Assembly: GCA_964600165.1 (NCBI GenBank) | Contig: CAZRIP010000005.1 | Coordinates: 48 to 64,047 of the forward strand | DNA: 64,000 nt | Direction: 5' to 3' | DNA from: an uncultured Elusimicrobia bacterium | GTDB lineage: Bacteria > Elusimicrobiota > Elusimicrobia > UBA1565 > UBA9628 | Shown here: in pieces, positions 6,559 to 53,384 of the stretch | How the letters are laid out: each line of letters opens with the position of its first letter | Numbering within the stretch: position 1 is the first letter of the stretch | Translations under genes and position numbers: made by a program | Notes under the pieces: model-generated | What the model was told of the DNA's origin: nothing | The model's database searches: none | What the model saw: the letters and a program-made list of their open reading frames with translations, nothing else

Positions 6559-6644
6559 AGCGAACGTGTCTAGGATGGGGGGCGGACTTCGCGTGCCTGC
6601 AAGTAGAATGGCAAAGCTTCTAATCCCCTGTTACAATTCGTGGC

Positions 6645-7307: not shown

Positions 7308-7345
7308 TGGTGGGAAAACTCCTGTTGTAGCGCGCCAGGAAATCG

Positions 7346-8128
7346 TCAATAGCTTTCCACGCAGTAAGATTTGCTCGCATCTGTCGCGCCACAGTAAATG
7401 AGATCTATCGCAAATTTTCCTTCCAAATAATAAAGATCTAGTAATGCCCTCTGGTCGTTTTGGCCCCGAAAAAGAACCGCGCCGCGTGGTCCAAGACAAT
7501 CGGTAACTTTCAGATAAGGACTAGGCTTGTCGAACTCCTCGGTGACTGCATAAGTTGAAGATAAATACTGTTGAGCATCATCCAATGCGTTACGGAAGTC
7601 CTGACAGTTGTCCGTAAACTCCTGAAGGTGGACGTAAAGAAGCTTATCTTTCACGGCGTCATCGACTGTTCGGATGGGGAAAAACGCGCTGAGTTCAGAG
7701 GGATGAAATCGCCCATATGCGAGCTTTTTGGATATTGGCCAGGATAAAAAGCCCGTTTGCGACGTTGCGGGCTTATCGCCAAGTGCTTTTCCGGTTTCGT
7801 TGCGCGACATTCCCATGGTCAGGTGAAATGGGAATTCTAATTGGATTTTTTCTGTCGTAGAAGTGGTCTTGTCTTCATGGGAACTTTTCCCGCAGCTTCC
7901 GACGATAAGAATGAGCCCCAGAATGGAAGCTAAGAGTGTGAGAGGAAGAACAATAAGCATCCCAACACCCAGTTTAACGCCGTCAAGAACGGTGTTTCCG
8001 GGCCTGTTTGATTGTGCGGGTTCGTTGGTACCGTGGATGTCGCGCTTGCAGAACCGACAAACGATCGCTTCGCGCCTTATCGTTTCAGCGCAGAACGGAC
8101 ATTTCTTGTTGCCGGTCGGAGCGTCCAC
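7346..8128 (-). CDS. hypothetical membrane protein with N-terminal zinc ribbon (CPFC...CRFC), one TM helix and a Cys-containing extracytoplasmic domain, on a low-GC island
   Basis: The ORF is 260 aa. It contains the CxxC-X13-CxxC motif and a hydrophobic segment GVGMLIVLPLTLLASILGLILIVG. The local GC is low. Confidence 0.5.
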   Translation of the reverse strand: MDAPTGNKKCPFCAETIRREAIVCRFCKRDIHGTNEPAQSNRPGNTVLDGVKLGVGMLIVLPLTLLASILGLILIVGSCGKSSHEDKTTSTTEKIQLEFPFHLTMGMSRNETGKALGDKPATSQTGFLSWPISKKLAYGRFHPSELSAFFPIRTVDDAVKDKLLYVHLQEFTDNCQDFRNALDDAQQYLSSTYAVTEEFDKPSPYLKVTDCLGPRGAVLFRGQNDQRALLDLYYLEGKFAIDLIYCGATDASKSYCVESY

Positions 8129-8174: not shown

Positions 8175-9833
8175 TTACATCTTCTCTGGCGCGCTGACGC
8201 CTAAGAGGCCGAGGCCTTCGGCGATCACGTCGCGCACGCCGGCGCAGAGGAGCAGGCGCGCTCTCGATTGCTCCGGCTCGGCGGCGTCGACGACGCGGCA
8301 CTTCTCGTAGAAGGGGTGATACAAGCCCGCCAGCTCAAGGAGATAATTCGCGAGCGGGTGCGGGGCCAGGTCGCGCTCGCAGATCTTCAAGACCTCGGGA
8401 AACCACGCGACTTTGACGAGCAGCGCGCGCTCTTCGGGCTTCTCGAGCAGGCGGGCGTTCGGTCCGGGCAATTGATCGCCTTCCGCCAAGATGCCCGCCT
8501 TCGCGGCCTCGCGGAAGATCGAGCAGATGCGCGCGTGGACGTATTGGCAGTAATAGACCGGATTCTCGCTCGACTGCTTCTTGGCTAGCTCGAGGTCGAA
8601 GTTCAAGTGGGAGTCCGGCGTGCGCATCGCGAAGAAGAAGCGGCAGGCGTCCTTGCCGACTTCGGAAACGACCTCGGATAACCGGACAAATTCCCCCGCG
8701 CGCTTGCTCATCTTGACCGCTTCCTGCCCGCGGTAGAGATGGATCAGCTGGTGGACGATGGCGTGGAAGTTCTCGGGCGGAAAGCCGAGCGCGGCGATCG
8801 CCGCCTTCATGCGCGGGACGTAGCCGTGATGGTCGGCGCCGAGGATGTCGATGAGCTCGGTATAACCACGGTCGAACTTGTCCTTGTGATAGGCGATGTC
8901 CGGAAGGAAATAGGTCGGCTTGCCGTCGGATTTGACGAGCACGCGGTCCTTGTCGTCCTCGGAGCCCTCGGCCGACGCCGTGCCGAGCCACACGGCCCCG
9001 TCCTTCTCGTAGACCATGCCGCGGCTCTTCAAGAAGTCGAGCGTCTTCTGCACGGCGCCGCTGGCGTGGAGCTCGGATTCGAGGTACCAGCGGTCGAAAT
9101 GGGTGTCGAAGGAGCGCATGTCGGATTTGTGGGAAGCGAGCAGCGTCTCCATCGCGTACTTGCCCCACGCTTGAGCGTCCCACGCGGAAGCCTCGGCGGG
9201 AGCCTGCGCGGCGACTTCGAATAAATACTCGCCCTGGTAGCCCTTCTCGGGCACCTGGGCGTCGGGCTTGCCGCGGGCCTGGTCGTAGCGGGCTTTGACC
9301 GATTCGCCGAGCAGCACGACGCGCCCGCCGGCGTCGTTGACGTAATATTCCGTCGCCACCTTGCGGCCCAGGCGCCGCAAGATGCGCGCGAGCGAGTCGC
9401 CGAGCGTCGCGCCGCGCCCGGACGCCAGGTGAAGCGGGCCGGTCGGATTGGCCGAGACGAACTCGATCAAGATCGCGCGCTTCGGGCCGTGCGGATCGGC
9501 GCCGTAAGAGGAGCGGCTCAAAGTGAGCGCCTTGAGGTTCGCCGACAGGGCCGAGGCGCGCAGCTTCAGATTCACGAAGCCGGGGGGCGCGGCGTTGGCC
9601 TCGGCGATCTCGGGGATCTGCGCGAAGGACGCGGCGAGCGCCTTGGCGACCTCCATCGGGTTCTTCTTCGACGCCTTGGCGAGCGCGAGCGGCCAGGGGA
9701 CGCTGACCTCCGCGCCCACGTGGGCGGGCGGCGAGGCGAGCGGGGCGAGGCTTTCCGGCGGCGCGACGCCGGCCTCCTTGGCCCAGGCGGCGGTCTTTTC
9801 GACGAGCGTCTTGCGCAGCGAGGCGAGGACCAT
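8175..9833 (-). CDS. argS: arginine--tRNA ligase
   Basis: 552 aa containing the class I HIGH-like region ANPTGPLHLASGRG, the KMSKR motif and a DALR anticodon-binding C-terminus. Confidence 0.95.
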   Translation of the reverse strand: MVLASLRKTLVEKTAAWAKEAGVAPPESLAPLASPPAHVGAEVSVPWPLALAKASKKNPMEVAKALAASFAQIPEIAEANAAPPGFVNLKLRASALSANLKALTLSRSSYGADPHGPKRAILIEFVSANPTGPLHLASGRGATLGDSLARILRRLGRKVATEYYVNDAGGRVVLLGESVKARYDQARGKPDAQVPEKGYQGEYLFEVAAQAPAEASAWDAQAWGKYAMETLLASHKSDMRSFDTHFDRWYLESELHASGAVQKTLDFLKSRGMVYEKDGAVWLGTASAEGSEDDKDRVLVKSDGKPTYFLPDIAYHKDKFDRGYTELIDILGADHHGYVPRMKAAIAALGFPPENFHAIVHQLIHLYRGQEAVKMSKRAGEFVRLSEVVSEVGKDACRFFFAMRTPDSHLNFDLELAKKQSSENPVYYCQYVHARICSIFREAAKAGILAEGDQLPGPNARLLEKPEERALLVKVAWFPEVLKICERDLAPHPLANYLLELAGLYHPFYEKCRVVDAAEPEQSRARLLLCAGVRDVIAEGLGLLGVSAPEKM

Positions 9834-9834
9834 G

Positions 9835-10917
9835 CTACGGCTGCGGAGGCTGCGCGCCCATGGTCACGAGCTGCTTGACCGTCCCGGGATCGTGGGCGAT
9901 CGCGCAGGCCTCGTTGAGGTCGACGAGGTTTTGCTTGATGAGGAAAGCGAGGTACTGGTCCATCGAGATCATCCCGAACTTGCTGCCGGCCTCGATGGCG
10001 GAGTAAAGCAGATGGGTCTTGCCGTCGCGGATGATGCTGCCGATGGCGGACGTCATGCGCATGAACTCCCGCGCGCAGACGCGGCCTTTGCCGTCCTTGC
10101 GCGGCAGCAAGGTCTGGCAGATGACGGCCTGCAGCACGGTCGAGACCTGGATGCGCACTTGCTGCTGCTGGTGCGCGGGGAAGACGTCGATGATGCGGTC
10201 GATGGTCGACGGCGCGTCCTGGGTGTGCAGCGTGCCGAAGCAGAGGTGCCCGGTCTCCGCGGCGGTGATGGCGAGCTGGATCGTCTCCAGGTCGCGCATC
10301 TCGCCGATCAAGATCACGTCGGGGTCTTGGCGCAAGCTGTGCTTGAGGGCCTCGGCGAAGGACTTGGTCTGCTGGCCGACCTCTCTCTGCAGAATGATCG
10401 AGTTTTTGTCTTCATACACGAATTCGATCGGGTCCTCGACGGTCAGGACGTGCTTCTGGTACTTCTGGTTGATGAGCTCGATGAGGCAGGCGAGCGTCGT
10501 CGACTTGCCGGAGCCCGTCGGGCCGGTCACGAGCACGAGCCCGCGCGGCAGATCGACCAAGTTGCGCATCGCCGGCATCAGGCCCAGCTCGTCCGGCGTC
10601 GGGATCCGCGACGAGATCGTGCGCAGCACGGCGGCCACGCCGAGCTTCTGCATGAACACGTTCACGCGAAAGCGCGAGACGCCGGAGAGCGCGATCGAGC
10701 AATCGAGCTCCCAGCGGTCCTCGAAGCGGGCGCGCTGGTCCTCGGTGAGGATCGAGTAGATGAGGTTCTTGCACTCATCGGCGGCGAGCTTCGTCGTGCC
10801 GGGGATCGGCTGGATGGCGCCGTTCAAGCGCACCATCGGCGGCTTGCCGATGACCAGATGAAGGTCCGACGCGCCCATTTGGGCGGTCGACTTCAGGATT
10901 TCAACGAGATCGGGCAT
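9835..10917 (-). CDS. pilT: type IV pilus twitching-motility (retraction) ATPase PilT
   Basis: Walker A GPTGSGKST, the Asp box, Walker B ILIGEMRD and the His box TLHT, with the typical PilT length and N-terminus. Confidence 0.9.
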   Translation of the reverse strand: MPDLVEILKSTAQMGASDLHLVIGKPPMVRLNGAIQPIPGTTKLAADECKNLIYSILTEDQRARFEDRWELDCSIALSGVSRFRVNVFMQKLGVAAVLRTISSRIPTPDELGLMPAMRNLVDLPRGLVLVTGPTGSGKSTTLACLIELINQKYQKHVLTVEDPIEFVYEDKNSIILQREVGQQTKSFAEALKHSLRQDPDVILIGEMRDLETIQLAITAAETGHLCFGTLHTQDAPSTIDRIIDVFPAHQQQQVRIQVSTVLQAVICQTLLPRKDGKGRVCAREFMRMTSAIGSIIRDGKTHLLYSAIEAGSKFGMISMDQYLAFLIKQNLVDLNEACAIAHDPGTVKQLVTMGAQPPQP

Positions 10918-11272
10918 GAGTCTTCCGCTCCCAGGCCACCTTGGGCGAGTCGAAGTAGAGCTTGTCCAGCGCGTAGAAATCGCGGGTCTCGCGCGTCATC
11001 ACGTGCACGAGCAGCCCGCCGAAGTCGAGCACGCGCCACTGATCGCTGCGCGGCCGCGCGCGATGCAGGCAGGCGACGTTGAAGTCCGCCGCGGCGCGCT
11101 CGACCTCGTGCTCCAAGGTCTCCAGGTGCGGGCGCGAGTTGGCGGTGACGATCAGCAGATAATCGGTGATCGGGCTCGTCTTGCTCACGTGGAGCAAGGC
11201 GATGTCCTCTCCCTTCTTGTCGTCGGCGGCTCGCGCCGCCGCGACCGCGACGCCCTTAAATGCCCGTGCCAT
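10901..11272 (-). CDS. rsfS: ribosomal silencing factor RsfS (Iojap family)
   Basis: 123 aa containing DIALLHVSKTSPITDYLLIVTANS. It overlaps pilT by 17 nt. Confidence 0.85.
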   Translation of the reverse strand: MARAFKGVAVAAARAADDKKGEDIALLHVSKTSPITDYLLIVTANSRPHLETLEHEVERAAADFNVACLHRARPRSDQWRVLDFGGLLVHVMTRETRDFYALDKLYFDSPKVAWERKTHARSR

Positions 11273-12164
11273 ATTTCAGGGTGGACTTCGAGAGCCGGTC
11301 GCGCAAGCTGTCCTCGGTCCTGAAGTTGATGTTTTCCAGCGCCGAGGTCAGCAGGCGCGCGACGGTCGTCAGCGTGCGGCCGGTCTCGTTGCGCTCCTCT
11401 TCGCCGAGCGGCGTCGCGGAATGAAAGATCAGGTAGCCGTGCGGGCGCTTGGGTCCAGGCAGCGACACGTAATAAGCCGCGTCGTCGAGCCAGAGGTTGC
11501 GCGTCTCCGTGGCGGGGGGTAGCTTGCCCTTCATGGAAGAAAAATCGAAGTCCCCGCGCCCGGCCACGAAGTCCATCTCGTCGTTGAACAGGTTGTAGAG
11601 GTGGGCCTGCGCCGACCAGGAGCCGACCAAATGGGGGACGATGCGCTCGAGCACGCTCAGGAGCAGCTCCTTGCCCGAGCCGTGGGCCTCGAGCAGGAGG
11701 CTCGAGAGATCGAAGAGGAGCGTGAGCTCGTTGGAGGTCCGGCGCAGGCGGCCGGACTGCACTTGCACGAGGTGCGCGAAGAAGCTCATCGCGAGCTCGG
11801 GGTTCGACTTGAGCCAGCGGTTGAGATCGTCGCGGCCGAGCTCGAAGAGGCTCGCCTCGCCGGAGGCGGACGCGCGCGCCGAGCGCGGCTGCGGCTCGAT
11901 GACCGCCATCTCGCCGAACGAGTCGCCGGCCCCGAGGATCGCCAGGTCCTTCGAGACGTTCTTGGCCATCTTCTTCGAGATCCTGACGTGGCCGGACGCG
12001 ATGAAATAGAGGCTGTCGCCGGTCGTGCCTTCCTCGAAGACGATCTCGCCGTCCTTCAGGGACTTGGCCTTGAGGAAGTCGCCGAGCGTCGCCAGCCGGT
12101 CCTCGGGAATCTGGCCCAGCAATCGCAGCGACTTGAGCAGCTGAATCTTGTCTTTGTCGGCCAT
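11256..12164 (-). CDS. cyclic-nucleotide-binding domain protein with an uncharacterised C-terminal domain
   Basis: The N-terminal CAP/cNMP-binding fold includes the phosphate-binding cassette GDSFGEMAVIEPQPRSARASA. The C-terminal roughly 170 aa have no motif I recognise. Confidence 0.75.
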   Translation of the reverse strand: MADKDKIQLLKSLRLLGQIPEDRLATLGDFLKAKSLKDGEIVFEEGTTGDSLYFIASGHVRISKKMAKNVSKDLAILGAGDSFGEMAVIEPQPRSARASASGEASLFELGRDDLNRWLKSNPELAMSFFAHLVQVQSGRLRRTSNELTLLFDLSSLLLEAHGSGKELLLSVLERIVPHLVGSWSAQAHLYNLFNDEMDFVAGRGDFDFSSMKGKLPPATETRNLWLDDAAYYVSLPGPKRPHGYLIFHSATPLGEEERNETGRTLTTVARLLTSALENINFRTEDSLRDRLSKSTLKYGTGI

Positions 12165-40530: not shown

Positions 40531-40668
40531 ATGTCCGATGCGACGCCGGCGCCGCGGTTGCTGATCATCGATGACGACGACTCCTTGCGCGAGCTCTTCG
40601 CGAAGCCGATCCATTACGCCGACCTCGCCGACTCGATCCGCAAGCTCCTCGCGGGGCGCGCCACGTGA
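40531..40668 (+). pseudogene. 45-codon internally deleted copy of a receiver domain (N-terminal 23 aa plus C-terminal 20 aa only), ending in a GTGA overlap with the intact receiver gene
   Basis: The translation is MSDATPAPRLLIIDDDDSLRELFAKPIHYADLADSIRKLLAGRAT. The downstream gene reads LLVVDDDESLRELF ... KKPINYAALAAFIRGRLK. The phospho-acceptor region is missing. Confidence 0.45.
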
Positions 40669-41048
40669 CCGAGCTCGGTCGGGCCAAGAGACGGCTGCTC
40701 GTCGTCGACGACGACGAATCGCTGCGCGAGCTTTTCCGTTTCTCGATGGAGAAGGAAGGCTTCGCCGTGGGCGAGGCCTGCGACGGGCTCGAAGGGCTGC
40801 AGAAGACCCCTGAGTTCGAGCCCGACTTGATCGTGGTCGATCTCATGATGCCCAACCTCGGCGGCTTCGAGATGGTGCGCAACCTGCAGGCTCTCGGCTT
40901 CGGCAAGATCCCGGTCGTCGTCATCACCGCCTACTCCGACGAGTCGAGCGAGCAGATGATCCGCCAGGAGCGCAACGTCGTCGACTTCGTCAAGAAGCCG
41001 ATCAACTACGCCGCCTTGGCGGCTTTCATCCGCGGCCGGCTCAAGTAA
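40665..41048 (+). CDS. single-domain response regulator (CheY-like receiver)
   Basis: Acidic pocket VVDDDE, phospho-acceptor LIVVDLMMP, conserved Thr/Ser and Lys (VKKP). Confidence 0.8.
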   Translation: MTELGRAKRRLLVVDDDESLRELFRFSMEKEGFAVGEACDGLEGLQKTPEFEPDLIVVDLMMPNLGGFEMVRNLQALGFGKIPVVVITAYSDESSEQMIRQERNVVDFVKKPINYAALAAFIRGRLK

Positions 41049-41677: not shown

Positions 41678-43261
41678 TTATAAATTCGTTTTCTTTTTCG
41701 CCTGGGGTCGGCGGACGTGACGCTCGCCGCGTCGCGCCGCGTCGCGCGCGTTTTTTTCGCGCAGCGCGATGTCCGAGAGCGCGAGCCAATGAGCGGGGTC
41801 CTTCGGCTCGAGGGCGATCGCCGAAAGCGCGGCTTGGCGCGCGCGCGTAAAGTCGCCGCGCATCTTGGCGGCGACGGCGAGGCGCTCGAGGTTTGAAACG
41901 TCGCCGGGCCGCAGGGCGCGGGCGCGCTCGTGGCAGGCGAGCGCGCGCGTCCAATCGCCGAGCTTGCCGTAGGCCAAGCCCTCGCGATAGGCGAGCCCGG
42001 GATAATCCGGGGCGTCGCCGTCGAGCCGCAGCAGCCGCGCGAGCGCTTCGGCGGGCCGTCCTTGCGCCAGCAAGGCGTCGCCGGCCAAGAGCTGGGCGGC
42101 GGGCCAGCTCGGCGACGTGTTCAAGACCTCGTCGAGTCGGCTCACTGCGTCGCTCTCGGAGCCGGCCAACGCCAGCAAGCGCCGCGCGCCGGCGACCTTG
42201 AAATCGTCGGCGAGCCAGCGCGCGGGAAAGACGGCGAGAAGCGCCAGGCAGGCCGCGAAGGCCGCCGCGAGCGCGCGGCGCGGGATTCTTTCGAAAGGCA
42301 AGGCGGCCGTCGCGAAAGGCTCGCCCGAGGAGGCGAGCGCGCAGAGCCCGCAGGCGGCTCCCGCGCAGAGCCAGGCCGCGGCCGCGAGCGCCGGGAGCGA
42401 CGTCCACGCGACGGCGGCCAAGGCGAGCGCCGCGCCGAGGAGCGCCGCGAGGACGCCGCGCTCCTCCGGCGCGCCGAGCCGGCCGAACGCTCTGAAAGCG
42501 CGCGCGGCCTCGACGAGCACGGCCGCCGCGAGCAAAATCGTGAGCGCCGCGCCGACGGGCTCGAAGCGCTCGATGGAGGGGAGAGGCGAGACGCGGCCGC
42601 CCGCGACGAGCGCCGCGAGGGCCAGGCCCGCCGCCGACGCGGCCGCGGCCTTGAGCAGCCGCTTGGCCTCGCCGCCGCCGCCGAGGGCGAACGCGGAGGT
42701 GAGAAACAGCGCGGGGCCCGCGGCGCGATCGAGCGCGGAGGGCAGCGCGAAGGCGGGCCCGACGGCGCCGACGCACGCCTCCCAGGCGATGAGCGCGCCG
42801 GCGATCCAGATCGCCGGAAGAAGACGCCGCGGCGCGCTCAGGCGGCCGGACAGCAGGCCGTGAAGAAGAAGGGCGCCGATTCCGGCGAGCGTTCCAAGGC
42901 GCAGCGCGGCGCCGAGGCCGGCATCCGGGTCCCAGGCGCCGACGAGCGAGGCGAAAGGAAGGCAGAGCGCGAGGGCGACGAGCGCGGCCGATGAGAATGA
43001 GAGCGCCGACGGCGGCTCGGGCTCAGGAGCGGCTTCGGGGGCGTCCGGCGCCGGCTGCGCCTTGAGCAGCGCCTGCCGCAGCTTCTCTTTGAGCTCGGGG
43101 GGCATCGGCGCGGGCCCGGCCTTCGCCGGGCGCAGCGCGCGCGCGAGGCGCGCGCATTCGGCGCAGCCTTTCAAATGCTCCGCGACGGCGCGGCTTCGCG
43201 CCTCCGGCAGCCGGTCCTCGAGGTGAAGATCGAGCAAGGCGCGTGTGCTTGCGCAGTTCAT
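41678..43261 (-). CDS. anti-sigma factor: N-terminal zf-HC2 zinc finger, multi-pass membrane region, C-terminal TPR repeats
   Basis: H-x3-C-x2-C motif HLKGCAECA, several hydrophobic helices and C-terminal TPR-like repeats. ATGA overlap with the ECF sigma gene. Confidence 0.7.
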   Translation of the reverse strand: MNCASTRALLDLHLEDRLPEARSRAVAEHLKGCAECARLARALRPAKAGPAPMPPELKEKLRQALLKAQPAPDAPEAAPEPEPPSALSFSSAALVALALCLPFASLVGAWDPDAGLGAALRLGTLAGIGALLLHGLLSGRLSAPRRLLPAIWIAGALIAWEACVGAVGPAFALPSALDRAAGPALFLTSAFALGGGGEAKRLLKAAAASAAGLALAALVAGGRVSPLPSIERFEPVGAALTILLAAAVLVEAARAFRAFGRLGAPEERGVLAALLGAALALAAVAWTSLPALAAAAWLCAGAACGLCALASSGEPFATAALPFERIPRRALAAAFAACLALLAVFPARWLADDFKVAGARRLLALAGSESDAVSRLDEVLNTSPSWPAAQLLAGDALLAQGRPAEALARLLRLDGDAPDYPGLAYREGLAYGKLGDWTRALACHERARALRPGDVSNLERLAVAAKMRGDFTRARQAALSAIALEPKDPAHWLALSDIALREKNARDAARRGERHVRRPQAKKKTNL

Positions 43262-43830
43262 CGCACTCCCTCCCGCGACAAGATCCCGCGTAATTGCGCG
43301 CGCGCGCGGTGCAGCCTCACGTCGAAAGCGGCCAGCGAGCAGCCGAGCGTCCGCGCGCAGTCCTCGCGCGCCATCCCCTCCAGGTCGGCCAGGACGACGG
43401 CCATGCGCAGCGTGGGGGAAAGCCCGGCGACGGCCTTGCGCACGGACTCGCTGTCGGCTTGCGCTTGAGCGAGGCGCTCGGGCCCCGGCTCGTCGTCTCG
43501 CAGCACGTCTTCCAAGGAGGCCGAGTCCTCGTCGTCGCCGCGCGGCGCGGAGAGAGAGACGGAGCGGCGCCGAGACTCGACGCCGAGGCTGCTCAAATAG
43601 ACGTTGCGGATGATCTGATTGAGCCAGCCCTCGAACGGCAGCGAGGCGTCATAGGAACCCATGTACTTGATCGCGCGCAAGAAGGCCTCCTGGACGACGT
43701 CGCCCGCGTCGGCCGCGTTGCCGGTCATGCGCAGCGCCACCGCGTAGGCGCGGTCGGCGTTCTGCTCGATGAGTCGGTTGATCTGGTCGGTGCGGGCGTC
43801 CACGGAGGCCGGCGCGCTCTCCTTAGCCAT
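43258..43830 (-). CDS. ECF-type RNA polymerase sigma-70 factor
   Basis: Region 2 reads YAVALRMTGNAADAGDVVQEAFLRAIKYM...FEGWLNQIIRN. Region 4 reads VVLADLEGMAREDCARTLGCSLAAFDVRLHRAR. Confidence 0.85.
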   Translation of the reverse strand: MAKESAPASVDARTDQINRLIEQNADRAYAVALRMTGNAADAGDVVQEAFLRAIKYMGSYDASLPFEGWLNQIIRNVYLSSLGVESRRRSVSLSAPRGDDEDSASLEDVLRDDEPGPERLAQAQADSESVRKAVAGLSPTLRMAVVLADLEGMAREDCARTLGCSLAAFDVRLHRARAQLRGILSREGVR

Positions 43831-43996
43831 GATACCGCGCGCTCCCGGCGAAACTTACAGGCAAGCGGGACAGATCATACCAAACCGGCGATCCCCGAGG
43901 CCGGCTGGGGGGCTGTCGTTAGGTCCTTTGACTGGGCGGCGCTGGGCCCAAGGACACGGCCGGGCGGGGCTCCTTCCCCTTATAATAGCAGCGTCG

Positions 43997-45514
43997 ATGA
44001 AAAGCGTCGGGCGCGCGTCGTCGGCTGTCCTGCTCGCGGCGAGCTTGGTCCTGCCGCCGTCGGCCGTTTTTGGGGTCGAGATCGACGGCCCCTCCGACCT
44101 TCCCTCGGCCGTCTCGCCGGTCGTTCCCGCGCTGACTCCGGCGTCGGCGGCGCTGACGTCGGTCGAGGCCGTCCTCCCGGGCCAAGAGAGCGCTCCGCTT
44201 CCGGCGCTCGAGACGGCCTTGGCCGAGAAAGCCGCGACGGCGGCCGCGGCGCCGGCCGCCTCCGTTTCGGCGGCGGGCCGCGCGCAAATCCTTCAGGCGC
44301 TTTCTCCCCAGAACGCGGAGCAGGTCTCCGACTCCCAGGCCAAGGATCTGTCGGCCGAGCTTATCGAGGGAAAAGCCGCGGCGCCGGACTCCGCGGTCGA
44401 GCCCGTCGCCGCCGGCCCGGCGCTCTTTCCGGGCCCGGTCTTCGCGAAGCCCTCCGAGGCGCGCGACTTCGCGCGGCGCGCGGAGCCCGCGCGTCCGGCC
44501 GTCGTTCGCGCCGCGGCGCGCCTGCGCGACGCCGTCCTCGACCGCGCCGCTTACGCGCGGTTGTGGGTGGATCATCTCCATTTCTACGTCGTGCGCAACA
44601 TCGTCAACAAGTGGGGCGCTTATCAGCGCGACCGCGGCGAGGCGCTGGCCAAGGGCGTCACGCCCGCCGTCACGAGCCCGCGCGCCTTTTTCGGCCATAT
44701 GCGCGTGATGGGGCAGACGGGCTACTACTACCCGCTGGGGTTCACGCCGCGCGACAACGAGGGCGTGATGAAGGAGGCCCGCGCGAGCTTCAGAAAATAT
44801 TTCGACGGTCCGGGCGTGGGGCAGAAGGAGTACGACGCCTTCGAGCGCTTCATGAAGCGCGCTCTCACGTACAACGCGGAGAAGCGCGCGAAGTCCAACT
44901 TCAACAAGCGCCTGCGCGACAAGATGCTCGAGGCGTCCCTGTTGCCGGCCGGTCAGATCGCGGATTTCTTCGACGCGCGCGTCAAAGACGACGGCTACAT
45001 CAAGGACTTCCAGAAAAACGGCGGGGCCGATCAAGTCCTCGAGCAGTTCCGCGGCATCGCCCTCGACCTGCTCCTTAAGGAGCCCGAGAAGGCCGACGGC
45101 AAGGTGCTCGGCGTCCTCTTGATCGGCAGCTTCGCCAACGGCGGCGCGACGCCCGGCAGCGATTTCGACGTGAGCATCATCACCCAAGACGGCTCTCACG
45201 CGCGCGCGAAGGGCTTCATGGACGAGTTCATCGCGCGGTGGGGCAAGGATCGGCAGAAGCAGCACACGGTCACCTTCCACGAGTCGCCGCTGCGGCCTTC
45301 GCGCTGGCTCGTCGACGCGATCCACGATTGCCCGTATCTCATTATCTCGCCGGACAAGGCGCTCGTCGAGGTCCTCCAGCGCAAGCCCGGCGAGGCGCCC
45401 GCTTTCGTCACGGGCAAAGAGTTGACCGCGCGCGGCCGCGTCGACCGCGTCCTGCAGTACTTGGCCGTGGAGACGACGATGCTCTTCACGCGTCCCGCGC
45501 CTCCCCGCAAATAG
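43997..45514 (+). CDS. secreted protein with an Ala/Pro-rich linker and a C-terminal minimal nucleotidyltransferase (Pol-beta-like NTase) domain
   Basis: Start assigned at MKSVGRASSAVLLAASLVLPPSAVFG (signal peptide). The NTase signature is GVLLIGSFANGGATPGSDFDVSII (GS...DxD). Confidence 0.6.
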   Translation: MKSVGRASSAVLLAASLVLPPSAVFGVEIDGPSDLPSAVSPVVPALTPASAALTSVEAVLPGQESAPLPALETALAEKAATAAAAPAASVSAAGRAQILQALSPQNAEQVSDSQAKDLSAELIEGKAAAPDSAVEPVAAGPALFPGPVFAKPSEARDFARRAEPARPAVVRAAARLRDAVLDRAAYARLWVDHLHFYVVRNIVNKWGAYQRDRGEALAKGVTPAVTSPRAFFGHMRVMGQTGYYYPLGFTPRDNEGVMKEARASFRKYFDGPGVGQKEYDAFERFMKRALTYNAEKRAKSNFNKRLRDKMLEASLLPAGQIADFFDARVKDDGYIKDFQKNGGADQVLEQFRGIALDLLLKEPEKADGKVLGVLLIGSFANGGATPGSDFDVSIITQDGSHARAKGFMDEFIARWGKDRQKQHTVTFHESPLRPSRWLVDAIHDCPYLIISPDKALVEVLQRKPGEAPAFVTGKELTARGRVDRVLQYLAVETTMLFTRPAPPRK

Positions 45515-45563: not shown

Positions 45564-46661
45564 CTACTGCTGCTTCGGCTGATTCTCGGGTCCGGGCAGT
45601 TGAGCCTTGAGCACGGGCGCCGCCGGCGCGGCCGGATGCTCGGCCAGGAGCTTCTCGGCGGCGCTTTCGTCGAACGTCTTCGCCATGACCGCCTTCTTGA
45701 CGGCCTCGGCGGCGATGCGCCGCGTCTCCTCGTCGCCCTTTTCAAAAGCGCGCTCGAAGATCGCCGCGCCGCGCTTGGCGAGGCCGGGACGGGCGCGGAG
45801 GATCTTGACGCCGCGGGTTAAAGCCGAGCCCTCGGCGGTCTCGATGTGCTTGTTGAGGAGAGCCGAGCTGATCCAGGGAAGCTTGACCGAATCTTCGATC
45901 AAGCCCGTTTGCTCGAGGCGCTCGAGAGCCGGGCCCATGAGAGCCGGGTCGCGGTAATCCTCGAGCGCGATCACGCAGGAGACGACGGTGGCGGGATCGC
46001 CCGTCGAGCGCATGAGCGCCAAGATCGGCTCGATCGCCTTCTTGCCGCCGGTGCGCCGCAGCGCGGCGACATAGATGGACGGCTCGATCTTGCCCGCGCC
46101 CGACGCCTGGAGCTTGAGGAAGACCGCCTTGCCGCCCACGCCTTCCGGCCGGCCGAGCTCGGAGGCGGCGGCGTCGCGCAGGTCCGACGGCCCCTCGTCG
46201 AGCGCCTTGAGCGCGAGCTCGCGGGCCGCGGGGCTCTTCGTGCGGCCGATCAGCAGTCTGCTCGCGCGGATCTTGAGCTGCCAGGTTTCCTTGGGCTCGC
46301 CGGTCGACTCATGGACGAGCGGCGCGATCGCCTCGCCCAGCGCGTCCGCGTTCTCCTTGCCGAGCGGGCTCTTGCCGTACTCCGGCCCGTCGAGCACGTC
46401 CATGAGCCCGCCGAGCGCGACGAGGCGGCTTTGCTCCTCGCCGTCCTTGACGCTCGGCAGGAAGGTTCCGACGACCTCGTCGGCCGAGACGGGCTGGGTC
46501 TCGGCCTGCGTCGCGGCTTGGCTCTGGGCTTCCTGCGCGGAGGGCGTTTGCTCGGGCCGCGGCGGGGACTTCTGCGGCGGCGCGTCGAGCATCATTTGGC
46601 CGATGCACGCGGCGGCGAGGACGACGAAGGTGCTGCCGACGATCACTTTGGCGCGTTTCAT
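45564..46661 (-). CDS. exported HEAT/PBS-lyase-like repeat protein
   Basis: Start assigned at MKRAKVIVGSTFVVLAAAC. Repeated helical units carry D/E-x-R-x-x-A-A signatures. Confidence 0.5.
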   Translation of the reverse strand: MKRAKVIVGSTFVVLAAACIGQMMLDAPPQKSPPRPEQTPSAQEAQSQAATQAETQPVSADEVVGTFLPSVKDGEEQSRLVALGGLMDVLDGPEYGKSPLGKENADALGEAIAPLVHESTGEPKETWQLKIRASRLLIGRTKSPAARELALKALDEGPSDLRDAAASELGRPEGVGGKAVFLKLQASGAGKIEPSIYVAALRRTGGKKAIEPILALMRSTGDPATVVSCVIALEDYRDPALMGPALERLEQTGLIEDSVKLPWISSALLNKHIETAEGSALTRGVKILRARPGLAKRGAAIFERAFEKGDEETRRIAAEAVKKAVMAKTFDESAAEKLLAEHPAAPAAPVLKAQLPGPENQPKQQ

Positions 46662-46757
46662 AAATCTTGTTCTCCGTGGCGGGGGCGGGCCTCTCGAGGG
46701 GCCCGGCGCCTGAGTCGGAATACCTAGGTGGGAGTGAAAACTTACAAACGATTCAAC

Positions 46758-47582: not shown

Positions 47583-50500
47583 TCAGAACTGGAACGTGAG
47601 GGTGGTGCCGAATTGGTACGAGATGAAGTCTTCCTCCGGGAGGAACTTATGCCATTCGCGCGATAACGCGCCGTTGATCGTCATGCGCAGGTTCTTGGCC
47701 AGCTCGTAATCGGCGCTGGTGTTGAACGTGGCGAGCTTGAAGTTATCCGCCACCGTCACCGGCGAGGAGCGCAGCGCGAGGGACAGCGTCGTCGTCCAGA
47801 TGATCCGGTTCGAGAACAGGATCGTCTTGGTCGAGCCGGGCAGCAGCAGGCCGCGCGGCAGCGCGAGGTCGGCGCGGACGAGAACGCTGGGCGTGATGAC
47901 AGTGACGTTCTGCGAGTAGGTGCCGAAGCCGTCTTGGGTGGTGTCCTTCGAGTAGTCCACCTTGGGCGTGAAGCGGAACTTTTTTACGTCGAAGGTCGTT
48001 TGGACGGTCGCGTCTTGATGCCCGGTCGCTTGGGTGTTCGCGTCGACGAGCAGGTTCTTGTTGGTCGACGAGCGCTGGTTGAAGCTGATCAGGCTGTCGA
48101 AGCGCTTAAAAAGGATCGAGCGCAGGTCCGTGCCGAACGAGGAGTCGGTCAGGATCGACTGACCCTCGTTGTTCGTGCGGTGCGCGGAGTACTTGTAGTT
48201 CATCTGCGTGCTGTTCATCCACTTGAACGTGCCGAAGAGCTTCTCGAGCTGGCTGATGCTCGCGACGAGGTCCGGCAGCGTCGTGGAGACCGTGCGCGAT
48301 TGGGTGTCCGTCGCGTTCGTGCGTTGGATGCTTTCGACGAAGTTGTTCGAGATCGAGATCGTCTTGAGCGAGGCCCAACGCCCGCGCAGGTCGTACGCGT
48401 CGAGCGGCGACCAGCGCTGGGTCGAGTTGAACGTGTCGCGCAGGGTCTGCGTCTGCATTTGGGCCGCCGGCCCCTGCGCGTGGAGCGGCGTGCGGATCCA
48501 CAGCGCGCCCATCGTGTCGAGATCTTTTTCGACCTGATTCCAGACGTCGCCGTCTTGCAGCTGATAGCCGGAGACGATGTTGAGCGTGCGGAAGAGCTTC
48601 GTGCGCCTGGTGATCTCGCCGATGGTGATCGGCAGGCTGATCGAGCCGTTCGAGTTGCGGTTGACGGTCTTGATGTCGCCGACGTTGAAGACGTAGGTCG
48701 AGTTGCCGACCACGAAGGTCGAGATGTTGAGTATGTTGTTCTCTAGCACGTCGATCGAGTAGTTGACCTGGGGATTGAGCCAGGACAGCAGGCGATAGTT
48801 CGATGTAAAGCCTACGGTCTCGCTTTGGGACTTCGGATAGCGGCTGTCGAGCTCGACGCCCGAGGTGAGGTCGTTGCGGTGCTCGGTGACCTTGGTCAGC
48901 GAGTAGTTGGGATTGAAGGTCGAGCCGGTCCACGGGACGAAGGTCAGCCGCGCGCCGACGGTCTGCGTGAGCTCGTTGGTGTTGAAGTCGCCCGGCAACA
49001 GGCGCGACTCGAGCGAGTCGAAGGTGATGTCGTATTTCGAGTAGCTGTAGTTGAGGTCGACGGTCTTCGGCAGGTAGCGGCGCGTGATCGGGACGCCGTA
49101 CTGCAGCGTGCCCGAGTAGGTCTTGCGGTCGTCGGTCCGCGTGAGGAAATCGTAGTTGATCCGATTGCGCGCGTAGTTGAGGTTCAAGCGCGGATAGGCG
49201 CCCAGGCTGAAGTTGCCTTGGGCCGTGCCGGTGAAGTTGACGACCTTGCCCTGTTGGAGCAGGTTGACGCTGTTCGTGAGCCCGCCCGTCAGATTGGTGG
49301 CCGGCGTGTCGGTGACGATGCGCGAGACGTTGAAGGTCAGCGGGAAATACTGCAGCCTGGTGAAGTTGAGGAATCCCGTGTCTTGCTCGTTGTCCTGATT
49401 GAGCACCACGGAGGTCGGCGTCTGGAAGTTACGGTCGACGGAGCGGAATTTCCCGCCGAACGTGGCCCAGCCCGGCACCTCGAAAGTCGCCTCGAGCTTC
49501 TCGGCGTTGCCGACGCGCGGGAGCGGCTGGGCGACGTGGATCTCGTTGAGGTAGACGATGCCCGCGCTCTGGTTGTCGCCGGTGATGCTGTTGCCGTTGC
49601 CGCCGGACGTCGTGTCGGTCGTCTTGCGGACGCCGGCCACGATCTCGGAGACTTGCTGAAGGCTCGGCGTGCCTGAGCTGATGATCGTGGTGCCGGGCGT
49701 GCTGGCCTGCCAGGTATCGGCGACGGCGTTGTGTCCCGAGTCGTTCTGGTAGACCCTGATCTCGCGCCAGCCGACGTAGTTCAGCGGGACGTCGACCTCC
49801 CAGAAGTTGGTGTCGTTGCCGACGCGCAGGAAGAACGTGTGGTCCGTGCAGTTGATCGCGCCGTTGCTCCCGTTGGCGGGCGAGCACGTCGCGCCTTGAC
49901 TATTAGGCGCGTTGGAATAGAGCAGGAAGTTGAAATAGCGGTGCTGGCTGATGTCGATCGCCGTCGTGTATTGCCGCTTGGTCGTCACGACGGCCCCGAC
50001 GCCGTTGACGATCGTCATGCTGGAGAACGCGAGCTCGAGGGCCTGCTCCGAGACGTTCGTGGTGTTCGACTGCTTCTGGAGGTTGCTCAGGCTGCCGTAG
50101 AGGTCGTTGAAGACCTGCGTCGCGTCGCCGCCGGCGTTGTAGATCGGGGTGTAGGTCGGGTTGTCGACGTTGTTGATCGGCGTGACGGTCAGGTTCTCGG
50201 GGCCGACGGGGTTATTGTTGAGAGCCGGGTCGATGGGCTGGCCGTTGAGCCACGTGTTGCCGACCACCGAGATGTTGGCGAATTTGAGCTGTCCGGCGAC
50301 CGGGCTTCCCGCGTGGTGTCGTACGGAGACGCGCAGCTGCTTGATGTTCGTCCAGCGGCTGAGCGTCGCCGTCGAGATGGCGAGCGGGATCTGGAACGTG
50401 TACCAGTTCGTGCCGCCGCCGAAGTCGATGACGGTGTGGACCTTCTGGTCGGTGGTGGCGAAGAGCTGCGTGCTCGTCGGGTTGAAGCCGGTGATGTCGC

Positions 50501-53384
50501 CCGCGTAGCCGAAGTTGTTGCCGTTGCCGTCGTCTTGGTCGAGGCGCGCGTTGACGTTGAGATCCTCGCTGTCGAGGCGGCCGTTGTTGGCGCCGAAGAC
50601 CGTCGAGGGCGTCAGGGAGCCAGCCGGGTTGGTGTAGGTCCAGCCGACGTCCTTGGCCGGCGACAAGATGCCGGTGCAGTCCGTGTCCTCGGTCTTCGGG
50701 ACGTTGTTGACCGTGACGCCGTTGGCGCAGGTCAGCGTCGTGCCGCCCGTCGCGTCCGCGTCCTCGGAGATGCCTCCCAGGCGGAAGTTGATGTCGTTGC
50801 CGGAGACGTCGCCGAGCATCGTGATCTGTAGGATCGTGCGCTGCGAGAAGTCGTTGCCGGCTGACGAGAACGGGAAGACGATCGACTGCTCCTGCGAGGC
50901 CGCGTTCGAGAAGTCGTAGTTGAAGTCGAGCACCTGCTGCGGCTGGTTGTTCGTCGCGGGGGCGCTCGGGTTGATCTGCAAGGCCGGCACGTTCTCGCTC
51001 GTCCACTGCATGCGGGAGGAGTCGCTCGGATCTTGGCTGCCGGTGAACGACGTGCAGGGCGTGGCGGCGGAGCAGCCGGCGCCGCCGGGGTTCGAGGCGA
51101 TGAACCACGCGGAGGCCAAAGTCGAGGCGCCGTCCGACTGCTTGATCCCCTCCATGTTGTCGACGATGGCGAAGGCGTTGAGGTTCAAGTCTTGGCGGCT
51201 CTGGGCGAACTCCCCGCCGAGGAGCTTGACCTTGAACTTCTTGCCGATCTGGAAGTCCTGCCCGTGGGCGTCGAAGTCGTAGACGAGCAGGCTGCGGGAG
51301 AGCTCGGTGATCGAGGGCGTCGTCTGGGACTTGATCCCCGACTCATAAAGCAGGGTCGAGCCCACCTCGTAGTGCTTGCCCCATTCGTAGGACACGCGGG
51401 TGCCGAGCAGCGAGTCGTTGGTCGTCGCGCCGGCGAAGGGCGCCACCTCGTAGCTGATGTCGATCTCGGAGTTCGCGCGGATGCGGTCCTGGTTGAAGAA
51501 CGTCACGAAGCCGGCGTCGTAGTCGATGAAGTAGTCGACGTTGCGGTTGAGCTTGACGTTGTCGAGCAGCACGATCTCCGATTGAGGCACGAGGTTCGGC
51601 TCGAGGAAGAAGGTCTTGAAGCGGTAGTTGTACTCGACGTGGATGATCCGATTGGGGATCGGCGTCGGCGCGTAGATGTTCGGGTCGGGCGTCGAGGGCG
51701 AGCTGTTCGAGACCGAGAACGGCACCAGCAGGTTGAAAAGGCCGTTGGCGAAGTCGACGTTGATCGTGTCCGGATACTTCTGGATCGGGTTCAAGCCCGA
51801 GCCGACCTCGTTGCGGTTCTGGTCCAAGACCTTCAGGATGAAGTTGCCCCGGCCGTTGTCGCCCACGATCTGGGTCTGGCCGATGCTGTAGAAGGTCTTG
51901 AGCTCGCGGTTGTAGCCCACTTCGTCGAGCGTGCAGCTCGAGCACTCGATCGGCTGGTCGCCCGCCGTCTTGATCAGCTTGAAATTGCCGGTGCCGCCGC
52001 CGATGGTCGTCATCGAGGAAGTCTCGACGTCGACGTGCTGATTGGAATTGTCGATGTAGTCGACGGCGACGACGAACTGCGGCTGGAGCTGGTTGCGGAA
52101 GGTGATGATGCCGCGCACGTAGTCGATCGTGTAGTCGAGGCCCGCCTGCATCTGAGCGAACGTGCCCGTGAAGGTCGAGGTGTGCAGCTGCAGGTCGTCG
52201 GCCGTCAGCGCCACGTTGTTCGTGTTGACCAAGCCGGGCTGATTCTGCGAGAGGAAGACGCGCTCGCTGCCGACCTTGATCGGCAGGCGGCTCGGGTTGC
52301 CGAACGTCAGATCGTAATAAGTGCGGCGGACGTAGGACGTGTCCTGAAGGTCGATGGAGGCGAACTGCTGGTTGCCGAAGAACTGCTTCGACTTCGTCGT
52401 GCCCTTGGTGCGGCTGCCGATGAAGCTGCCCTTGAAGCCCTTGTACTTGATGTCGGCGCGGATGCCGAAGAGCTGCTTGTTGTACGAGACGAACTCGGTG
52501 GCGGGCAATGAGAGGTCGATGTCGCCGAAGCTGACGTTTTGGACGACCTCGTTGGGATCTCCGGTGTAGACGACGGAGATGTCCTGGTGGTTCTGCTTCG
52601 TGTCGTCGTAGTCGACGTTGACCGTGATCTTCGGGCCGACTTTGCCCTGCATGCGCAGCTGGAGCTGCTGGGTGATGTCGATGAGGTTGGTCGTCTGCGG
52701 GCGGCCGGAGGTGACCTGCGGGTTGAGGAACTTCTTCTCGGAGTAGGTCACGCCGAGGACCTTGCGGCCGGTCACCGAGAGGCTCGTGCCGTAGGTCGGC
52801 AGCTCGACTTCGGGCGGCGGCGGCTTGGGCGCCGTAGTCGAGGAGATCGAGACCGCCTCGCCGAGGAGGATCGGGATGATCTCGTTCTCGTTGGGCTCGC
52901 GGCCCTCGTCGACGTCGGTCTTCGCGTGCTCGTATTTGTCGAGCGTGTAGTGGAACTCTTGGGTCGACTCGGCGATCTCCCAGTCCAGGAACTCCGGGGT
53001 CTCGGAGGAGACGCCCGCGGCCACCTCGGTCGACTCCTGCTGCTCGAAGATGTGGTCCTTGTCCGTCCGGTCGAGAAGCAGGAACTTGCCCGAGTACGAC
53101 GGCATCAAGATCGGCACCGGCGGCTCGCTGGGCAGATTCTCCGGCGCGGCCGAAGGCTGGCTGGAAGGCTCCTCGGGCTGGGTCGATTCCTGCGGCGCCG
53201 GCGCGGGGGCCTCGGGCGCCTCGGGGGCCGGCTTTTGCGGGGTCTTCGACGGCTCCTGTTGGGGGGCGAAATCCGGGTCGTACGGCGTGGAAAATTGGGC
53301 GTAAGCCGGCACGTTCGCGGGCGCGAGCGTAACTAATAGTGCCAGCCAGAGACAAAACCGCCGATGGGCGCGCTGTAGATTCAA
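47583..53384 (-). CDS. giant (1933 aa) secreted protein, predicted outer-membrane beta-barrel (possibly SprA-like)
   Basis: TTG start. Signal peptide LWLALLVTLAPANVPAYA. Pro/Glu-rich linker. About 1700 aa rich in N/T/S/G/Q/Y with alternating hydrophobic patterns. The C-terminus TLTFQF ends in Phe. Confidence 0.75.
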   Translation of the reverse strand: MNLQRAHRRFCLWLALLVTLAPANVPAYAQFSTPYDPDFAPQQEPSKTPQKPAPEAPEAPAPAPQESTQPEEPSSQPSAAPENLPSEPPVPILMPSYSGKFLLLDRTDKDHIFEQQESTEVAAGVSSETPEFLDWEIAESTQEFHYTLDKYEHAKTDVDEGREPNENEIIPILLGEAVSISSTTAPKPPPPEVELPTYGTSLSVTGRKVLGVTYSEKKFLNPQVTSGRPQTTNLIDITQQLQLRMQGKVGPKITVNVDYDDTKQNHQDISVVYTGDPNEVVQNVSFGDIDLSLPATEFVSYNKQLFGIRADIKYKGFKGSFIGSRTKGTTKSKQFFGNQQFASIDLQDTSYVRRTYYDLTFGNPSRLPIKVGSERVFLSQNQPGLVNTNNVALTADDLQLHTSTFTGTFAQMQAGLDYTIDYVRGIITFRNQLQPQFVVAVDYIDNSNQHVDVETSSMTTIGGGTGNFKLIKTAGDQPIECSSCTLDEVGYNRELKTFYSIGQTQIVGDNGRGNFILKVLDQNRNEVGSGLNPIQKYPDTINVDFANGLFNLLVPFSVSNSSPSTPDPNIYAPTPIPNRIIHVEYNYRFKTFFLEPNLVPQSEIVLLDNVKLNRNVDYFIDYDAGFVTFFNQDRIRANSEIDISYEVAPFAGATTNDSLLGTRVSYEWGKHYEVGSTLLYESGIKSQTTPSITELSRSLLVYDFDAHGQDFQIGKKFKVKLLGGEFAQSRQDLNLNAFAIVDNMEGIKQSDGASTLASAWFIASNPGGAGCSAATPCTSFTGSQDPSDSSRMQWTSENVPALQINPSAPATNNQPQQVLDFNYDFSNAASQEQSIVFPFSSAGNDFSQRTILQITMLGDVSGNDINFRLGGISEDADATGGTTLTCANGVTVNNVPKTEDTDCTGILSPAKDVGWTYTNPAGSLTPSTVFGANNGRLDSEDLNVNARLDQDDGNGNNFGYAGDITGFNPTSTQLFATTDQKVHTVIDFGGGTNWYTFQIPLAISTATLSRWTNIKQLRVSVRHHAGSPVAGQLKFANISVVGNTWLNGQPIDPALNNNPVGPENLTVTPINNVDNPTYTPIYNAGGDATQVFNDLYGSLSNLQKQSNTTNVSEQALELAFSSMTIVNGVGAVVTTKRQYTTAIDISQHRYFNFLLYSNAPNSQGATCSPANGSNGAINCTDHTFFLRVGNDTNFWEVDVPLNYVGWREIRVYQNDSGHNAVADTWQASTPGTTIISSGTPSLQQVSEIVAGVRKTTDTTSGGNGNSITGDNQSAGIVYLNEIHVAQPLPRVGNAEKLEATFEVPGWATFGGKFRSVDRNFQTPTSVVLNQDNEQDTGFLNFTRLQYFPLTFNVSRIVTDTPATNLTGGLTNSVNLLQQGKVVNFTGTAQGNFSLGAYPRLNLNYARNRINYDFLTRTDDRKTYSGTLQYGVPITRRYLPKTVDLNYSYSKYDITFDSLESRLLPGDFNTNELTQTVGARLTFVPWTGSTFNPNYSLTKVTEHRNDLTSGVELDSRYPKSQSETVGFTSNYRLLSWLNPQVNYSIDVLENNILNISTFVVGNSTYVFNVGDIKTVNRNSNGSISLPITIGEITRRTKLFRTLNIVSGYQLQDGDVWNQVEKDLDTMGALWIRTPLHAQGPAAQMQTQTLRDTFNSTQRWSPLDAYDLRGRWASLKTISISNNFVESIQRTNATDTQSRTVSTTLPDLVASISQLEKLFGTFKWMNSTQMNYKYSAHRTNNEGQSILTDSSFGTDLRSILFKRFDSLISFNQRSSTNKNLLVDANTQATGHQDATVQTTFDVKKFRFTPKVDYSKDTTQDGFGTYSQNVTVITPSVLVRADLALPRGLLLPGSTKTILFSNRIIWTTTLSLALRSSPVTVADNFKLATFNTSADYELAKNLRMTINGALSREWHKFLPEEDFISYQFGTTLTFQF

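Follow-up and report, generated by a model that had tools for sequence, protein, structure and literature searches.

The window analysed here is a 64,000-nucleotide stretch of DNA from an uncultured Elusimicrobia bacterium (NCBI GenBank assembly GCA_964600165.1, contig CAZRIP010000005.1, positions 48 to 64,047 of the forward strand), and our subject is a single gene within it, an open reading frame (ORF) at 43997-45514 on the plus strand that is free of internal stops and translates into a protein of 505 aa. Its product (the target) joins an N-terminal export signal to a nucleotidyltransferase (NTase) fold, and its public annotation reads only 'nucleotidyltransferase domain-containing protein'. 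The gene and its parts are as follows.

43997..45514, plus strand: gene for the exported NTase-fold protein (by translation; an identical protein, P0001, is on record, with orthologues in Elusimicrobia metagenome-assembled genomes, MAGs)
43997..44074, plus strand: predicted signal peptide, aa 1-26 (K2, R6; hydrophobic core; VFG/VE), from the sequence and the equivalent N-termini of orthologues
44075..44509, plus strand: Ala/Pro/Ser-rich low-complexity tether, aa 27-171, from composition; mostly predicted disordered
44264..44371, plus strand: helical segment within the tether, aa 90-125, LSPxN...SxEQA...L, conserved in alignments A1 and A3, with a predicted local distance difference test (pLDDT) score of 85-92
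44510..45076, plus strand: family-specific all-helical domain, aa 172-360, with conserved G239, G242, G248, A281, F282, R288, R297, K304 and D326
45089..45376, plus strand: core of minimal nucleotidyltransferase (MNT) type, aa 365-460
45125..45172, plus strand: active-site motif GSFANGGATPGSDFDV, aa 377-392 (G377, S378, S388, D389, D391), from the family alignment
45428..45484, plus strand: C-terminal helix, aa 478-496, amphipathic in the target, from the AlphaFold2 model, the hydropathy of relatives and alignment A3

An earlier note on this DNA, made from the sequence alone (the original prediction), had described a long Ala/Pro-rich low-complexity linker, and the composition of aa 27-165 agrees, Ala, Pro and Ser making up 27%, 12% and 10% there and 11%, 5% and 3% of the remaining protein. 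An AlphaFold2 model built on a 47-sequence alignment gives a pLDDT above 95 for aa 180-505 and of ~90 for aa 90-125, while the remainder of the tether is disordered, with a pLDDT below 50 at aa 22-69 and 130-163. In this model the folded module comprises a helical lobe (aa 172-360), an alpha/beta lobe with strands at 370-376, 390-396, 425-427 and 448-450, and the C-terminal helix (aa 478-496), whose equivalent in relatives is either a true transmembrane (TM) anchor with a basic tail behind it (in a sister subfamily) or a helix preceding a major facilitator superfamily (MFS) domain (in fusions). The domain of roughly 230 aa that had been placed before the NTase is present, but it measures ~190 aa (172-360) and is all-helical.

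Profile score, motif and fold all place the protein in the Pol-beta-like NTase superfamily (PF01909). The Pfam model NTP_transf_2 (PF01909) matches aa 368-412 with 26 bits against a gathering cut-off of 21 (E=1.2e-5) and also matches 22 of 29 long relatives; the core has the alpha-beta-alpha-beta-alpha-beta NTase fold, and GSFANGGATPGSDFDV conforms to the hG[GS]-x9-13-Dh[DE]h motif, in line with the minimal GS...DxD signature first read from the sequence. Conservation of the active site was counted in 120 module copies from ~100 protein clusters, aligned with a hidden Markov model, with non-gap copies as the denominator. G377, S388 and D391 are each found in 114 of 114 copies, D389 in 113 of 114 and S378 in 112 of 114; the catalytic Asp pair is thus kept in 113-114 of the 114 copies, and its loss, which would have refuted the original prediction, was not seen. 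A basic cluster in the helical lobe is less strictly conserved (R288 in 98/105 module copies, R297 in 70/103, R303 in 86/105 and K304 in 87/105).

Structure and profile comparisons returned MntA (7bxo) as the top Foldseek match with a probability of 0.97, the best E values all being above 1e-3, and a search of PDB sequences with the family profile gave motif-level matches only, to ANT(4')-IIb and MntA. The helical lobe matched only designed or generic helical bundles in the structure search, and no Pfam or NCBIfam model covers it. From these comparisons, the core is a minimal MNT-type NTase, whereas the remainder is family-specific and the helical domain has no known relative. MntA is a type VII antitoxin that poly-AMPylates its HEPN toxin, and MNTs in general are cytoplasmic, stand-alone proteins of ~100-140 aa with a HEPN partner. 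In contrast, the target carries three further parts ahead of its core (signal peptide, ~140-aa tether and ~190-aa helical domain) and a helix at its C-terminus, and among its neighbours neither a HEPN match nor, on inspection, an Rx4-6H motif was seen. An identity as an MntA antitoxin was rejected on these grounds: the target is exported, is 505 aa long, lacks a HEPN partner and scores 18.2 bits with the NCBIfam MntA model (NF047752) against a cut-off of 60. The G-X11-D-X-D motif of GlnE and DrrA (SidM) is present in the target (G377, 11 residues, D389-F-D391), although no clear whole-domain structural or sequence homology to these proteins was found. ANT(4'), LinB and AadA differ from it in being cytoplasmic and in carrying their helical domain C-terminally, and the resistance-gene context is absent here.

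An exhaustive profile search of 1.84 billion representatives yielded 107 proteins, a small family of ~100 clusters at 50% identity, and another search with this profile, run on a word index of proteins, found no further members. All relatives that bear an organism name come from Elusimicrobia/Elusimicrobiota MAGs, names having been obtained for three of the 13 clusters looked up, and a related-locus search with an alignment of seven sequences reached three genomes, all of them Elusimicrobia. The sources of the relatives are peat, forest-soil and similar free-living MAGs. Within the 64-kb window no paralogues of the NTase module were found, nor any Rfam or tRNA features.

In the N-terminus of the target, MKSVGRASSAVLLAASLVLPPSAVFG/VEIDG, two basic residues lead into a hydrophobic core, the residues at -3 and -1 are small, and acidic residues follow the predicted cleavage site; this fits a Sec-type signal of N-in/C-out polarity and agrees with the signal peptide of the original prediction. 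A signal peptide that vanished from orthologues would have pointed to a wrongly assigned start, but the full-length orthologues P0002, P0004, P0005, P0006, P0008 and P0013 (38-76% identity) all have a basic n-region and a hydrophobic h-region. Moreover, the next in-frame Met is residue 235, within the conserved domain, and a conserved -10 box lies close to the ATG. Together these three observations argue that the start at 43997 is not mis-assigned. An upstream start at 43769 was rejected as a high-GC artefact, the extension overlapping the sigma promoter region and not being conserved, and an antisense ORF of 608 aa was rejected as an artefact of the same kind. A lipoprotein reading of the NTase was likewise rejected, since Cys occurs neither within the signal peptide nor after it.

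Export seems to be shared across the family. A strict home-made rule called a signal peptide in 54 of 76 full-length-looking family members, and those failing the rule are mostly fragments or have truncated starts or a clipped n-region. Members of a sister subfamily (e.g. P0039, P0046, P0050, P0056 and P0057) end in a C-terminal hydrophobic helix followed by an Arg/Lys tail, as expected of a type I topology with the module outside the membrane. In the MFS fusions (P0032, P0036, P0053, P0087 and others) the signal peptide and the module are followed by one additional hydrophobic helix and then by ~12 TM segments, which is consistent with an N-in permease that carries the module on its outer side. 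An extracytoplasmic location of the NTase module, read from these sequence features, is well supported, though not proven. Immediately after the predicted cleavage site, distant members (P0041, P0043, P0053-P0055, P0061, P0082, P0086 and others) share the motif A-x-[VI]-R-[VI]-A-P-[VI]-x-x-x-P, which may be a sorting or docking signal; the subfamily of the window has [VI]-E-x-x-x-P at the same position.

Two tandem modules, a GlnE-like duplication, occur in P0009, P0010, P0011, P0017, P0045, P0054 and P0061. Most of the longer members have a recognisable signal peptide and add further domains, among them MFS permeases, VWA and beta-propeller domains and, in three large proteins, the following.

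L009 8001-12479: P0054, with HD/HDIG, a histidine phosphatase (His_Phos) and a second module
L013 798-5729: P0049, with a multi-pass membrane domain (MFS-type in relatives) and a HAD-like domain
L014 5001-10115: P0060, with a macro domain and a PNP_UDP/HpnG-like nucleoside phosphorylase

Five different nucleotide- or phosphoester-processing fusion partners indicate that the module handles nucleotides, and the domain content of P0060, P0054 and P0049 suggests extracytoplasmic processing of nucleotides or ADP-ribose.

The genes and control elements next to the NTase gene are listed below; the sigma factor is of the extracytoplasmic function (ECF) type.

41678..43261, minus strand: zf-HC2 anti-sigma fused to a polytopic membrane/TPR protein (Pfam zf-HC2 and TPR)
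43258..43830, minus strand: ECF sigma factor, SigE/SigW-like (Pfam Sigma70_r2 and r4_2; NCBIfam sigma70-ECF, 89 bits)
43832..43859, minus strand: ECF-type promoter of the sigma operon, TGTAAGTT-N15-GGTAT, one of two matches in the window
43920..43949, plus strand: two direct repeats T[AG]GGNC[CT](TTTG) 5' of the NTase gene, unique in the window
43981..43986, plus strand: TATAAT -10-like box, 10 nt before the NTase ATG, conserved in seven loci
45564..46661, minus strand: exported HEAT-like all-helical protein of 365 aa, convergent with the NTase gene (translation; weak HEAT_2 match)
46720..46746, minus strand: second copy of the ECF-type promoter, 5' of the HEAT-like gene, at the same position in L005, L007 and L011
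46805..47572, minus strand: class I S-adenosylmethionine methyltransferase (Pfam), co-located in most orthologous loci

The divergence of the NTase gene from an ECF sigma/anti-sigma operon, as originally described, is borne out by orientation and by the Pfam identification of both genes (NCBIfam also identifying the sigma). The listed sigma start, ATG 43830, comes just one base after the -10 element of the gene's own promoter, and this promoter position leads us to place the true start probably at GTG 43803, which is preceded by the Shine-Dalgarno sequence AAGGAG and gives a protein of 181 aa (orthologues, 171-192 aa). The anti-sigma/TPR gene is a single ORF of 527 aa in the window and two overlapping genes in L001 (2-1299) and L011 (3074-5205), pointing to either a gene fusion or an assembly frameshift in the window. 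The listed HEAT-like ORF (456 aa, TTG start) runs too far upstream; its real start is ATG 46661 (MKRAKV...), and the resulting product has a signal peptide bearing an AAAC lipobox-like site.

Linkage between the NTase and sigma genes extends beyond local synteny but is not universal. The arrangement in which the anti-sigma and sigma genes diverge from the NTase gene and the HEAT-like gene converges on it is common to the window, L001, L005 and L011, with local rearrangements, and the shorter contigs of P0006 and L008 contain the sigma-NTase part of the cluster. An orthologous ECF sigma adjoins the NTase gene in the window, L001, L005, L008, L011 and L013 at 60-66% identity, a range that excludes the P0006 locus, whose NTase gene also adjoins an ECF sigma. 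The HEAT-like gene adjoins the NTase gene in L001, L005, L007 and L011 and lies three genes downstream in L013. The L013 NTase, fused to a multi-pass membrane domain and a HAD-like domain, is only 30% identical to the target, yet it lies between the orthologous sigma (62% identity) and the HEAT-like gene with one other gene intervening. In L007 the sigma is two genes from the NTase gene, and in L014 a different, non-orthologous ECF sigma lies two genes downstream; no sigma was found near the NTase-family gene at L002/L006, L009, L010, L015 or L016. Altogether, an ECF sigma is adjacent or at most two genes away in nine of the 14 contexts examined, including those of members only 30% identical, and the genetic link to an ECF sigma/anti-sigma pair holds in most loci examined, distant relatives included. 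No described ECF group with a conserved exported-NTase neighbour is known to us, and literature searches for exported NTases, or for an ECF group with an NTase neighbour, found none.

The original prediction had further made the NTase gene a candidate member of the ECF regulon, and this the evidence does not support. The motif TGTAAG-N14-20-GTAT has exactly two matches in the 64-kb window (0.03 expected), both in gene orientation, upstream of the sigma and HEAT-like genes. The same motif lies 5' of the sigma gene in L001, L007, L008 and L013 and 5' of the HEAT-like gene in L005, L007 and L011; a conserved ECF-type promoter was thus found at these two genes and not at the NTase gene. In L007 the motif has moved with the sigma away from the NTase gene, while staying at the sigma and HEAT-like genes. 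We take TGTAAG-N17-GGTAT to resemble the SigX/SigW promoters of B. subtilis (TGTAAC or TGAAAC ... CGTA) and, on the strength of this likeness and of the SigE/SigW-like sigma, we take the motif to be an autoregulated sigma promoter with the HEAT-like gene as a second target. SigW/SigE-type modules have such an autoregulated promoter, and the neighbouring sigma is of the same type with the motif 5' of its own operon; the difference from those modules is that the motif does not precede the NTase gene. Within the window, the motif would define a regulon of two members, the sigma operon and the HEAT-like gene. A reading of GGAACTTACA on the plus strand as an RpoE-like -35 element facing the NTase gene was dropped because both L007 copies lie upstream of the relocated sigma, in the orientation of the sigma, and because the same bipartite motif precedes the HEAT-like gene.

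The NTase gene instead has an upstream architecture of its own. An alignment of four intergenic regions contains three conserved blocks, of which one is the ECF-type motif of the sigma gene and two belong to the NTase gene. Two or three direct repeats T[AG]GGNC[CT]TTTG (TAGGNCCTTTG), spaced ~22-31 nt apart (mostly 22-24), precede a -10 box (TATAAT, TACAAT or TATCAT), which in seven loci is separated from the start codon by 4-11 nt. Counted back from the -10 box, the proximal repeat begins at 38 nt in six of these seven loci and at 39 nt in L011, a spacing that holds even between proteins of only 30-45% identity. The repeat pair is unique in the window (0.04 expected), and in L001, L005, L007, L008, L011/L012 and L013 the repeats occur only 5' of the NTase gene. 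The TAGGNCCTTTG repeats are probable, still putative, activator sites, and the promoter looks like an activator-dependent sigma-70-type promoter giving rise to a near-leaderless mRNA. On account of this architecture, the NTase gene is probably not a direct ECF target. For this region a sigma-54 promoter was also considered and rejected by inspection, a conserved GG-N10-GC element being absent.

Several further observations concern the wider neighbourhood. The methyltransferase gene and that of a giant protein of ~1,900 aa lie close to the recurring NTase cluster, and in L002 the methyltransferase start overlaps the NTase stop. In the window the giant protein (47583-53384, minus strand) has 1,933 aa, a signal-like N-terminus and a C-terminal ...LTFQF as in outer-membrane beta-barrels; it has no Pfam match, is 62-67% identical across Elusimicrobia MAGs, far above the conservation of the NTase, and is probably a core envelope protein of the phylum. 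In L007 an inserted gene pair (9554-11942, minus strand), encoding a 462-aa polytopic protein and a 347-aa partner, separates the NTase and sigma genes, the polytopic protein appearing MBOAT/AlgI-DltB-like as read from sequence alone, and an intrinsic terminator lies between the HEAT-like and NTase genes. A receiver-only response regulator of 127 aa is encoded near the NTase cluster in the window (40665-41048, plus strand), and another (29% identity) directly follows the distant membrane-domain-fused (MFS-type) P0037 at L015 7732-8115. Lastly, the window contains a low-GC islet at 6001-8000 (55% against 65-73% elsewhere), which may have been acquired horizontally; its genes, at 6645-7307 (plus strand) and 7346-8128 (minus strand), encode a 220-aa protein with GLNPG...HPTG motifs suggestive of a uracil-DNA glycosylase and a 260-aa zinc-ribbon membrane protein.

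We propose that the target is a Sec-exported, envelope-resident NTase of the MNT class, from a small family named so far only in Elusimicrobia, and we give this proposal, with the mechanism that follows, a probability of about 0.45. The fold, the motif invariance, the export signals, the synteny and the promoter motifs are its observed basis, from which we infer cleavage, catalysis, donor, acceptor and activator. The signal peptide would carry the protein across the inner membrane, leaving a long Ala/Pro-rich tether followed by a compact two-lobed module, in which a family-specific helical lobe with a conserved Arg/Lys cluster would sit beside an alpha/beta lobe bearing the GS...SDxD metal/triphosphate site. 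D389 and D391 would bind Mg2+ and catalyse nucleotidyl transfer to a hydroxyl of an extracytoplasmic acceptor, either a protein or an envelope component. AMP would be the most likely group transferred, on the model of MntA, GlnE, DrrA and the ANT enzymes. Among candidate acceptors we would favour the exported HEAT-like protein, then another envelope protein and lastly a glycan or lipid. The NTase gene would be co-inherited with the SigW/SigE-like sigma/anti-sigma pair and the ECF-controlled HEAT-like protein, yet be transcribed from a promoter of its own that looks activator-dependent.

A number of points weigh against this proposal. Its weak point is the nucleotide donor, since to our knowledge no pool of nucleoside triphosphates (NTPs) exists in the periplasm; the MFS fusions might hint at a dedicated route of donor supply, which is speculation on our part. 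Position 429, the site of the third catalytic carboxylate in Pol-beta-type NTases, is Glu in the target but is not conserved in the family (E 27, D 13, Q 30, S 9, M 6). Residue 303 (nt 44903-44905), Arg in 86 of 105 modules, is Asn in the target and its two closest relatives (SNFNKRLRD against SNFRK...), which may reflect a changed substrate or weakened binding. The signal-peptide calls rest on a home-made heuristic with inspection and the TM counts in the MFS fusions on crude hydropathy, and the linkage to the methyltransferase, the giant protein and a penicillin-binding protein (PBP) may be nothing other than conserved gene order within the phylum.

A wider version of the proposal, which we regard as doubtful, would see in the family an extracytoplasmic nucleotide-modification system of Elusimicrobia, in which exported NTases nucleotidylylate (e.g. 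AMPylate) proteins or polymers of the envelope beyond the inner membrane, associated or fused MFS permeases supply the donor nucleotides, and exported HD, phosphatase, macro or phosphorylase domains reverse or process the modification, the whole being wired to an ECF envelope-stress module with its induced target, the HEAT-like lipoprotein, as partner or substrate of the NTase.

Among the alternatives, the protein might be an extracytoplasmic sensor, non-catalytic or ligand-binding only, that binds a nucleotide or metal and signals to the anti-sigma or another regulator. The pairing with sigma/anti-sigma genes, kept even at 30% identity, the variable third carboxylate and the stand-alone response regulators nearby in the window and in L015 would suit such a role. 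However, G, S, S, D and D are strictly invariant over 114 copies, as in catalytic NTases, the fusion partners are enzymes (HD, His_Phos, HAD, PNP_UDP, macro) and not signalling output domains, and family members at L002, L009, L010 and L016 have no sigma nearby, which together make a sensor unlikely. We hold it equally unlikely that the module is an envelope-polymer phosphotransferase of the LicD/fukutin kind, decorating a surface glycan or lipid from a CDP-X or NDP-X donor instead of AMPylating a protein. LicD and fukutin are NTase-fold DxD enzymes that act on surface glycans, the module faces the envelope, and glycosyltransferase, PBP and transglycosylase genes in the wider neighbourhood, as well as the inserted gene pair of L007 in its MBOAT-like sequence reading, would fit this role. 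Against it, the protein matches no LicD model in Pfam or NCBIfam, the nearest structures are of the MNT, ANT and GlnE types, and the same problem of donor supply arises outside the cytoplasm.

The original prediction had left the choice between nucleotidylation of an envelope substrate, which the proposal above retains as an inference, and a secreted effector. An effector or toxin released after Sec export which, like Legionella DrrA/SidM, AMPylates its target within a second cell would find its ATP there, but this reading is quite improbable. Sister subfamilies are anchored by a C-terminal TM helix with a basic tail or fused to MFS permeases, which argues that the module stays at the envelope of the producer; the gene belongs to a vertically conserved chromosomal cluster with envelope genes, no secretion-system, immunity or polymorphic-toxin features lie next to it, and the free-living sources of the relatives likewise speak against an effector. 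Least credible by far is a cytoplasmic MNT-like enzyme whose apparent signal peptide arises from a wrongly chosen start codon, since, although minimal NTases are normally cytoplasmic and a longer ORF from 43769 exists, the signal peptide is kept in orthologues and across the family, the only internal alternative (Met235) falls inside the conserved domain, the conserved -10 box stands immediately 5' of ATG 43997, and the 43769 extension is unconserved and runs into the sigma promoter region.

What is new at this locus is the combination of family-wide export, a new helical lobe, fusions to permeases and nucleotide enzymes, and a conserved ECF-sigma divergon. With no NTP pool known in the periplasm, nucleotidyl transfer counts as a reaction of the cytoplasm. 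If the enzyme were ordinary and mis-localised in silico, the finding would reduce to another 'nucleotidyltransferase domain-containing protein'. Taken at face value, the invariance of the active site, the targeting to the outside and the fusions to permease and nucleotide domains imply either that the envelope has an unrecognised supply of nucleotide donors or that the NTase fold is put to a new use here. For a phylum with almost no genetics, the locus also offers a testable regulatory unit, an ECF motif with two targets next to a separate promoter that would be under operator control.

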